A DNA stretch of 24,855 nucleotides from Promethearchaeota archaeon (lineage in GTDB: Archaea > Asgardarchaeota > Lokiarchaeia > Sigyniarchaeales > SOKP01), in NCBI GenBank assembly GCA_013375475.1, contig JABXKD010000056.1, positions 1-24,855 on the forward strand. Reading direction: 5' to 3'. This document shows positions 22,930 through 23,827 of this stretch, piece by piece. Position numbers and translations under genes: made by a program. The notes below the pieces were generated by a model that saw only the letters and a program-made list of their open reading frames with translations, did not search any database and was not told the DNA's origin. The number at the start of each line of letters is the position of its first letter. Positions within the stretch are counted from its first letter, which is position 1.

Positions 22930-23181
22930 GTGATAGACAATCTTTTTCAATTAGTTAAAATAGGTAAAGATTTAGGATTGAACAAGAAAGAAATTACTAA
23001 AGTATTATTATTTAACAATTCTAAGAACCCAATACTATATACGATCTTAATGATAATAGCAATTATCTTTTCAGGGATAATCATTATATTTATCGCAATC
23101 GTAGTCTCAAGAAATATCTATCCTGCTGGAGCATTATATTCTACGGTAAAAACAAAAGATTTCAAAGCTAAAAAAAAATAG
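22930..23181 (+). CDS. Small single-pass membrane protein, paralog 1 of 3 (candidate rSAM substrate)
   Basis: KIGKDLGLNKKEI N-terminus, TM helix, NIYPAGALYSTVKTKDF tail. It has an SD and is homologous to the next two ORFs. Confidence 0.85.
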   Translation: MIDNLFQLVKIGKDLGLNKKEITKVLLFNNSKNPILYTILMIIAIIFSGIIIIFIAIVVSRNIYPAGALYSTVKTKDFKAKKK

Positions 23182-23218
23182 AATAGTAAATTTCATATAA
23201 GTAGAGTTTGTTTAGAAG

Positions 23219-23491
23219 TTGAGAAGAGAAATATTTCATATTTATAAGTTAGGAAGAGAATTAGGATTAGCTAAAAAAGATATAGATACGGTTTTTTCCT
23301 ATAACAGTTTTAAGGGCAAAGATATTGGGGGAATTATCGTAATTATAATAATCCTATTTTTAGGTTTTTTAATTATATTAGCTAGTTTAACTGCGATACC
23401 GAATTCACCGCGTGTTCCATCAAATAATACCTACCAAACAGGAACTCTTTATTCTACTGTCAGAATAAAAGATTTCAAAGAAAGAAAATAA
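23219..23491 (+). CDS. Small single-pass membrane protein, paralog 2 of 3
   Basis: KLGRELGLAKKDI, TM helix, NTYQTGTLYSTVRIKDF. Confidence 0.85.
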   Translation: MRREIFHIYKLGRELGLAKKDIDTVFSYNSFKGKDIGGIIVIIIILFLGFLIILASLTAIPNSPRVPSNNTYQTGTLYSTVRIKDFKERK

Positions 23492-23581
23492 ATTCAACAA
23501 TTATGTCGTGAAATTTTAAACTGATGGTAAAAATACAAAAATTAAATTAACTTCAAAGTTTGAGTGATTATTGAGAAAATA

Positions 23582-23827
23582 ATGAAAGATTTGATACAAT
23601 TACTTAAAATCGGGAAAGAACTAGGATTGTCTAAAAAAGAAGTAAGCAAAGTTTTATTCTTTGATAATAATAAGAATAGGGTCATATTCCTGATATTTTT
23701 AATTATAATCTTCTCAATTGCGGGCTATTTTATAATCTTAATTATTAAATCGACGGTAAACAACACTTACCCTAGCGGAACAAGATATTCAACGGTAAAA
23801 ATAAAAGACTTTGATAAAAAGAAATGA
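23582..23827 (+). CDS. Small single-pass membrane protein, paralog 3 of 3 (ATG 23582 preferred over GTG 23564)
   Basis: KIGKELGLSKKEV, TM helix, NTYPSGTRYSTVKIKDF. The ATG start roughly aligns with the starts of paralogs 1 and 2. Confidence 0.85.
   Translation: MKDLIQLLKIGKELGLSKKEVSKVLFFDNNKNRVIFLIFLIIIFSIAGYFIILIIKSTVNNTYPSGTRYSTVKIKDFDKKK

Follow-up and report, generated by a model that had tools for sequence, protein, structure and literature searches.

Candidate membrane-anchored substrates of a radical SAM/SPASM enzyme in an Asgard archaeon

Which molecule is modified by a radical S-adenosylmethionine (SAM) enzyme whose gene is followed by three small genes for related proteins? This question is raised by contig JABXKD010000056.1 of a Promethearchaeota archaeon (assembly GCA_013375475.1), which was analysed as a whole (24,855 bases, here called the window). 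Close to its end, the map of open reading frames (ORFs) shows five consecutive genes on the plus strand that encode a radical SAM/SPASM enzyme, three small proteins (paralogs A, B and C) and a methyltransferase fused to a tetratricopeptide repeat (TPR) domain. Comparison with related loci makes it likely that the three paralogs are membrane-anchored, precursor-like substrates of the adjacent radical SAM/SPASM enzyme and of the methyltransferase-TPR protein. The computed basis consists of the genes themselves, an old paralogy, purifying selection on both protein ends, linkage across genomes, relatives without the helix that carry several cores beside homologous enzymes, and intact iron-sulphur ligands in the enzyme. 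From these we infer how the small proteins may bind, where and by which chemistry they may react and how they may lie in the membrane.

Three small proteins with conserved ends and a variable helix

The features of the cassette are the following (RRE, RiPP recognition element; RiPPs are peptides that are ribosomally synthesized and modified post-translationally):
21792-22895, plus strand: radical SAM/SPASM enzyme, 367 amino acids, Pfam domains Radical_SAM and SPASM, without N-terminal RRE
22930-23181, plus strand: paralog A, GTG start, 83 amino acids; head, hydrophobic helix and tyrosine tail
23219-23491, plus strand: paralog B, TTG start, 90 amino acids; 8-residue insertion between helix and tail
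23564-23827, plus strand: paralog C, 87 amino acids from a GTG start, or 81 from the ATG at 23582
22957-23004 (A, K10-V25), 23246-23293 (B) and 23606-23653 (C), plus strand: head motif, leader-like, with invariant G12, L15, G16 and L17
23113-23178 (A, Tyr64 and Tyr70), 23426-23488 (B) and 23762-23824 (C), plus strand: tail motif, core-like
23824-24855, plus strand: class I SAM methyltransferase fused to a helical TPR domain, 344 amino acids visible, gene cut by the contig end

A preliminary description of this DNA had proposed three tandem paralogs with conserved ends and a variable middle, and the three-way alignment agrees with it. The paralogs are 43-50% identical, with 26 invariant columns concentrated at the ends, among them G12, L15, G16, L17, Y64, G67, Y70, S71, T72, V73, D77 and F78. 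The head reads K-[IL]-G-[KR]-[DE]-L-G-L-x-K-K-[DE] and the tail N-[IT]-Y-x2-G-x2-Y-S-T-V-[KR]-x-K-D-F; the asparagine codons of the tails lie exactly at 23113, 23426 and 23762, where the tails had been said to begin. Between paralog pairs, 9-18 of 27 positions are identical in the head, 9-10 of 29 in the helix and 13-15 of 22 in the tail. The comparison of synonymous and non-synonymous change, suggested at the same time, gave a lower non-synonymous divergence for the head (0.19-0.35) and the tail (0.19-0.26) than for the helix (0.41-0.48), and synonymous sites are near saturation (proportion of synonymous differences, pS, 0.50-0.98). As the helix is less constrained than the ends and synonymous sites are close to saturation, the likeness of the ends reflects neither chance nor a recent duplication; they have been kept by selection. 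Both ends of the paralogs are under purifying selection.

The AlphaFold2 model of paralog A, calculated with an alignment of 35 rows, contains helices at residues 2-14, 19-32 and 34-63, followed by a tail (64-83) without structure (pLDDT about 52-64). The predicted architecture is thus a two-helix head, a 30-residue helix and a disordered tail. Among 152 family members, the 15 residues before the helix contain a median of four lysines and arginines (net charge +2) and the 15 residues after it one (net charge 0). This charge bias weakly favours an N-in/C-out topology, a matter that the preliminary description had left to prediction; the far C-terminus is again rich in lysine. No Pfam or NCBIfam family matched the small proteins over threshold, even at E <= 10, so the known structural family that would have spoken against modified substrates did not turn up among curated families, and a search of the protein atlas with paralog C yielded no lead.

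With regard to the starts, most relatives begin at the M-K-D-L position of paralog C and some have the longer form, and the start of paralog B is matched by the relatives P0009, P0012 and P0021. The stop codon of paralog C overlaps the start of the methyltransferase gene (ATGA). One metatranscriptome run contains two short contigs of a close relative, one of which covers the 3' end of the radical SAM gene and continues ~100 bases into paralog A (22757-23030, 10 differences). This is a weak hint of co-transcription, as RNA libraries can contain DNA. One DNA run contained contig joints across paralog copies (window 22979-23872 and 23475-23817), whose sides of 21-24 letters are too short to count; such joints, which skip paralog copies, could be population copy-number variants.

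Linkage across genomes and relatives without the helix

A profile built from the three paralogs matched 301 proteins at E <= 0.01. Among the matches listed (120 of the 301), all are 80-99 amino acids long, and the organism names are only those of Hermodarchaeota and Promethearchaeota metagenome-assembled genomes. An exhaustive profile search of 1.84 billion cluster representatives gave 70 matches at E <= 0.001. Two long repeat or EF-hand-like proteins, P0170 and P0182, were rejected as false positives of the profile; P0182 is a eukaryote-like protein of 1828 amino acids whose repeated EF-hand-like units contain a helix-loop-helix (M-x-L-G-L-[ST]-[DE]-E-E-I) similar to the head motif.

The pattern Y-x2-G-x2-Y is present exactly in 158 of the 164 helix-bearing members examined. 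Both tyrosines are kept in 162, of which the four beyond the exact ones have a changed glycine or one inserted residue, and the remaining two members are truncated before the tail. The wider alignment, in which a loss of the tyrosines would have counted against their being targets, therefore leaves them in place. The second tyrosine is followed by serine in 98% of the 158 members, then by threonine in 96% and by valine in 91%.

We built a tree with 57 copies (23 loci), in which paralog A groups with the first copies of loci L007 and L010 (support 98/90), paralog B with the second copy of L009 (96/91), and paralog C falls within a clade of seven rows (99/99). Because each paralog of the window groups with copies of other genomes and not with its neighbours, the paralog types are old. 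The helix-bearing family was found at E <= 1e-8 in 55 of the 135 genomes of the window's taxonomic family and in 4 of its 13 genera; among the 36 genomes with >= 90% completeness and <= 5% contamination, 12 carry it. When the weaker profile of helix-less relatives (see below) was run on 400 genomes of the phylum, all 42 matching genomes belonged to this same taxonomic family. With its presence in 55 of 135 genomes the system is an accessory one, which is more likely involved in interaction or defence than in core physiology.

We mapped the homologues of the cassette genes in 22 related loci from species-representative genomes. A small gene adjoins the methyltransferase-TPR gene in all 22 and the radical SAM gene in 21; the exception starts at a contig end. 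The loci contain one to four small-gene copies and three gene orders: radical SAM gene, small genes, methyltransferase gene; small gene, methyltransferase gene, radical SAM gene, small gene; and small gene with membrane protein gene, followed at some distance by radical SAM, small and methyltransferase genes. The trio of small gene, radical SAM gene and methyltransferase-TPR gene thus stays linked despite reordering.

The methyltransferase matches Pfam Methyltransf_11/23, and its full-length relatives (~440 amino acids) also match TPR_2. The orthologue in L007 was modelled with AlphaFold2 as a Rossmann domain (residues 1-156) and an all-helical part (165-426) with a pLDDT of 87; no PDB sequence matched the methyltransferase-TPR protein, and Foldseek gave only generic class I methyltransferase folds. 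A multipass membrane protein of ~200 amino acids is encoded in nine of the 22 loci, each time directly 3' of a small copy of a separate "D-type", whose stop codon often overlaps the start of the membrane protein gene (e.g. L012:12177-12785). It matched no known family and gave no protein atlas lead, and may be an immunity, export or processing partner. Neither this protein nor the fourth, D-type copy was found in the window's assembly, where the contig ends inside the methyltransferase gene, so that absence is not implied.

Three further observations concern these loci. An apparent fusion of small protein and membrane protein in L024 was rejected since it spans a run of N. In L007, a 43-codon remnant of a second small copy (10287-10415, 38.9 bits) lies between the first copy and the methyltransferase gene, a sign of copy loss. 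A gene for a Ras-family small GTPase (L007:13081-13629) follows the last gene of that cassette, which belongs to a close relative, at a distance of ~430 bases.

More distant relatives, found among the matches of the search of cluster representatives, lack the hydrophobic helix. They begin with a head of the form I-Y-K-I-G-K-x-L-G-L-x-K-K-D-I-D, which is followed by tandem tail motifs, [DE]-[LIV]-Y-K-A-G-T-x-Y-G-T-[VI]-S-x-K-D-[FL]. A search with these helix-less relatives recovered 144 further proteins. Precursor-like ORFs with one to seven core copies are present in 41 of 43 metagenome loci, and 20 of the 43 contain one to three radical SAM/SPASM genes each, often interleaved with the precursor genes, whose products are 39-55% identical to the window enzyme over the full length. 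Five proteins of 112-174 amino acids (P0176, P0278, P0285, P0291 and P0292) even contain two or three complete head-tail units; in these multi-unit relatives the tyrosines are spaced by five instead of six residues (H-Y-P-G-x-H-Y-G-T). The enzymes encoded beside helix-bearing substrates form one clade (14 of 14; support of 99 in the Shimodaira-Hasegawa-like approximate likelihood ratio test, SH-aLRT).

A single head and a multipliable core beside paralogous radical enzymes is the layout of RiPP precursors, which identifies the head as leader-like and the tail as core-like. Two RiPP-like traits are present, a linkage of precursor and maturase across genomes and a leader separable from a multipliable core. 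A recognition element and a modified core on either side of the helix had been postulated in the preliminary description, and the helix-less relatives with one head and several tails, the radical SAM homologues in 20 of their loci and the linkage of the trio strongly support this part of it.

The helix-less relatives have only two named sources, 'Euryarchaeota archaeon ex4484_162' and 'Candidatus Helarchaeota'. Archaeal housekeeping genes are located in the flanks of their loci (archaeal ThrRS editing domain, wyosine-forming radical SAM enzyme, GPN-type ATPases). The flanks of eight long loci encode B12-dependent radical SAM enzymes, S33/S9-type hydrolases, Rce1-like membrane proteases and flavodoxins, and in two of them homologues of the methyltransferase-TPR protein. 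The rich clusters L054, L058, L060, L063, L066, L068, L071 and L074 contain up to three radical SAM/SPASM paralogs and also an adenylate-forming ligase.

The radical SAM/SPASM enzyme and the probable site of the reaction

The window enzyme contains a Radical_SAM domain at residues 20-171 (E 9.1e-27) and a SPASM domain at 249-306. Neither the CxxxCxxC motif (C25, C29, C32) nor any of seven SPASM cysteines varies among 35 homologues. The two best NCBIfam models of the enzyme are peptide maturases. The top one is TIGR04103, which we take to be the class that holds PlpX, and the enzyme is the only match to this model at E <= 1e-20 in its genome. The second model is TIGR03913 ('GDL motif peptide-associated radical SAM/SPASM maturase'; 170.1 bits, cut-off 591.75), which is also the top model for three of the four enzymes scanned from helix-less loci (194-214 bits). 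This class is similar in being a peptide maturase paired with short peptides and differs in that every score is far below the cut-off. A correspondence between 'GDL' and the G-[KR]-[DE]-L-G-L head is conceivable. Further models, likewise below their cut-offs, are NirJ, WgkB, DynA, MftC (124.1 bits, cut-off 265) and PqqE (72.2 bits, cut-off 381.35). No close relative of the enzyme has a solved structure; the best PDB match is SkfB, for the core domain only (E 3.5e-15). No PqqD or RRE match was found in the enzyme or in the neighbour proteins.

The closest comparison is with the spliceotide systems, PlpX/PcpX of type I and RhaX/RhaA, RcsX/RcsA and RasX/RasA of type II, in which a radical SAM/SPASM gene likewise lies beside small precursor genes with a tyrosine-centred core. 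According to an excerpt of PMC11414181, X-Y-G motifs are the sites at which the X protein cuts out a tyramine equivalent. Type I systems require a PqqD-like Y protein and the binary type II systems work without it, as described in parts of PMC11414181, PMC11626197, PMC10533398 and PMC11002830. In type II spliceases, an alpha-helix of the leader is predicted to take the place of the Y protein on the enzyme (PMC11414181, same excerpt). PlpX is given as IPR026482 in an excerpt of PMC11002830; spliceotide clusters of bacteria and archaea were catalogued by Scott et al. 2022 (Chem), as one of PMC11626197 states. Like the binary systems, the one studied here has no RRE and no Y protein, its head is predicted to be helical, and its helix-less relatives carry x-Y-G. 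In contrast to them, the window proteins have a hydrophobic helix between leader and core, the methyltransferase-TPR gene is an obligate neighbour and the hosts are Asgard archaea. No report on the small-protein family, or on a splicease substrate with a membrane anchor, turned up in the literature searched; the catalogue of Scott et al. 2022 may already include the helix-less branch.

The interaction of enzyme and substrate had been suggested for a prediction with AlphaFold-multimer. The complex of the enzyme with paralog A reached a median score of 0.39 (runs 0.22, 0.39 and 0.45), and the best control 0.01. The runs agree in >= 85% of contacts, with a partner pLDDT >= 64. Of 157 solved complexes, 116 pass the mark set for this score, as do 2 of 215 mismatched pairs; with a score <= 0.60, 18 of the 157 pass, together with both of these mismatches. 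The prediction thus points weakly in the proposed direction, with a score at which few true complexes are found.

Several points speak against the three paralogs being substrates of the radical SAM/SPASM enzyme and the methyltransferase-TPR protein. In the range of the complex score, a passing pair is more likely to be false than true, except where the pairing was probable from the outset. With TIGR04103 the enzyme reaches 210.5 bits, against a cut-off of 725, and is not a member at threshold. For AhbD (heme b synthase) it scores 162.8 bits against a cut-off of 500, nearly level with the peptide maturases, and other non-peptide enzymes score similarly. The motif of the window proteins is x-Y-S (L/R-Y-S-T) instead of X-Y-G; as judged from sequence, the system is like a binary splicease system in layout and departs from it in enzyme score and in this motif. 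No radical SAM homologue was found in the fetched stretch of 23 of the 43 helix-less loci; ten of these stretches measure less than 4.1 kb and the other 13 between 5.7 and 14 kb, and the latter suggest that many precursor genes of the helix-less branch lie away from the enzyme gene. A domain scan of the window and the related loci showed no protease and no transporter in the window cassette. Once the helix between them is inserted, leader and core come to lie on different sides of the membrane.

Which residue is likely to react? The preliminary description named both tyrosines as targets. We favour the second one, in the context x-Y-[S/G]-T-[VI], as the better candidate, because the spacing of the first one varies in distant relatives (five or six residues). 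In the helix-less motif copies, 95% of 269 have a glycine after the second tyrosine (x-Y-G).

With the same pairing of enzyme and substrate, the reaction could instead tie one or both tyrosine rings into a C-C or C-O cross-link, as in cyclophanes, streptide or pyrroloquinoline quinone (PQQ). Both tyrosines would then matter, as in the preliminary description. Both tyrosines and the intervening glycine are kept, the window motif is Y-S, unlike the Y-G of splice sites, and a small residue stands two positions after each tyrosine (Y-P-[SAT], Y-S-T). In this they are similar to the aromatic-X-X units found in three-residue cyclophanes. An excerpt of PMC9062424 mentions Aro-Xaa-Xaa-Asn as a related class. 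The enzyme also scores for WgkB, DynA, MftC and PqqE, in each case below the cut-off, whereas its top-scoring model is the class taken to hold PlpX, which is not a cross-linking enzyme. The clean x-Y-G of the helix-less relatives argues against a cross-link as well, and the variable position of the first tyrosine is a poor fit to a ring of fixed size. We regard a cross-link as possible, if rather unlikely.

The model scores for MftC and PqqE bring two further pathways into the comparison. In the biosynthesis of mycofactocin (MftA/MftC) and PQQ (PqqA/PqqE), a radical SAM/SPASM enzyme acts on a tyrosine of a small ribosomal peptide and needs a PqqD-type partner. The systems are alike in their tyrosine-directed enzyme and differ in their motifs and in the PqqD-type partner, which is missing in the window system.

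The position three residues after the second tyrosine is also conserved, being valine or isoleucine in 96% of the motif copies from helix-bearing members and in 92% of those from helix-less ones. This residue could be the target of an epimerisation (as by YydG/EpeE) or of cyclopropylglycine formation (as by TvgB/TigE). Excerpts of PMC10878394 and PMC9062424 describe TvgA and TigB as repeat-core precursors with a conserved valine or isoleucine; like the precursors here, they have one leader and several short core copies beside a radical SAM/SPASM enzyme. The cyclopropyl synthases TvgB and TigE carry a GYW motif, which ligates auxiliary cluster I, and an N-terminal RRE (PMC10878394, excerpt), both of which are missing in the enzymes here, and their cores are without tyrosines according to the same two excerpts. 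The window enzyme has G-Y-C at one site, which is not conserved in the family, and there is no conserved GYW in the alignment of 35 rows. No cyclopropyl synthase structure was among the PDB sequence matches at E <= 0.001. As a reaction at the valine or isoleucine would also leave two invariant tyrosines unexplained, we consider it improbable.

A different reading gives the small proteins no role as substrates. They would be membrane-anchored regulators or adaptors of helix-turn-helix type, co-transcribed with a cofactor-directed radical SAM enzyme similar to AhbD or NirJ. The AhbD score and the head, which resembles a helix-turn-helix, fit this idea; P0292 has sub-threshold matches to Sigma70_r4 and helix-turn-helix models (E 4.6e-4, 20.1 bits, cut-off 24.1). 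The head is predicted to consist of two short helices only, and several tail motifs or head-tail units in one small protein make no sense for a regulator. The linkage to the radical SAM and methyltransferase-TPR genes survives changes in gene order, and the window contains no siroheme or heme-pathway genes. This makes a regulatory function very improbable.

For the paralogs as substrates of the neighbouring enzymes, we propose the following mechanism. The two-helix head would be the leader and would dock directly on the RRE-less enzyme, like the leader helix of binary spliceotide systems. The unstructured C-terminal tail would be the core and enter the active site, where radical chemistry would most likely take place at the second, invariant tyrosine (x-Y-S-T-V). 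The reaction might be a backbone rewrite resembling tyramine excision or another tyrosine-directed reaction. The methyltransferase-TPR protein may add a second modification or hold the substrate via its TPR domain. Since the enzyme needs iron-sulphur clusters and SAM, modification would take place in the cytoplasm, while the helix is being inserted or earlier. With an N-in/C-out topology, the rewritten tail would end up on the outside, either displayed there or set free.

Neighbouring genes and biological meaning

The remaining genes of the window are unrelated to the cassette. The upstream genes for a metallo-beta-lactamase-fold protein and a NosD-like beta-helix protein do not accompany the cassette in more distant loci. 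The NosD-like parallel beta-helix protein (19962-21536, minus strand, divergent from the cassette) has 524 amino acids with N- and C-terminal hydrophobic segments; homologues are encoded in L018, at ~8 kb from the cassette, and, in shorter form, in the helix-less locus L058. Another gene (15369-16793, minus strand) codes for an F420-hydrogenase beta-like protein with the N and C domains FrhB_FdhB. Its weak C-terminal match to a TrmB-type winged helix is below the Pfam cut-off and would, if real, be an unusual fusion.

To our knowledge, radical SAM chemistry of the RiPP type is known almost entirely from soluble bacterial peptides, which are cut from their leader and exported. In the system described here, a membrane helix would stand at the centre of the leader-plus-core logic, which would persist in sets of old paralogs and be coupled to a methyltransferase-TPR protein. 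A more far-reaching and doubtful idea is that the tails are never freed as a natural product. A splicease-like enzyme would then rewrite the backbone or tyrosines of resident single-pass membrane proteins, so that one to four anchors with a reactive tail (e.g. a ketoamide) are presented on the surface. Such tails could serve as tethered protease inhibitors or as a protein-derived cofactor, and the system would be one of enzymatic backbone editing of membrane proteins and not of peptide antibiotic synthesis.

The helix-less relatives would be convenient soluble substrates for studies of the chemistry. If the tail is rewritten, tyrosine-directed SPASM chemistry would be extended to an x-Y-S site. 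It would also mean that membrane proteins are subject to radical post-translational editing in the Asgard archaea, the archaeal group closest to eukaryotes.

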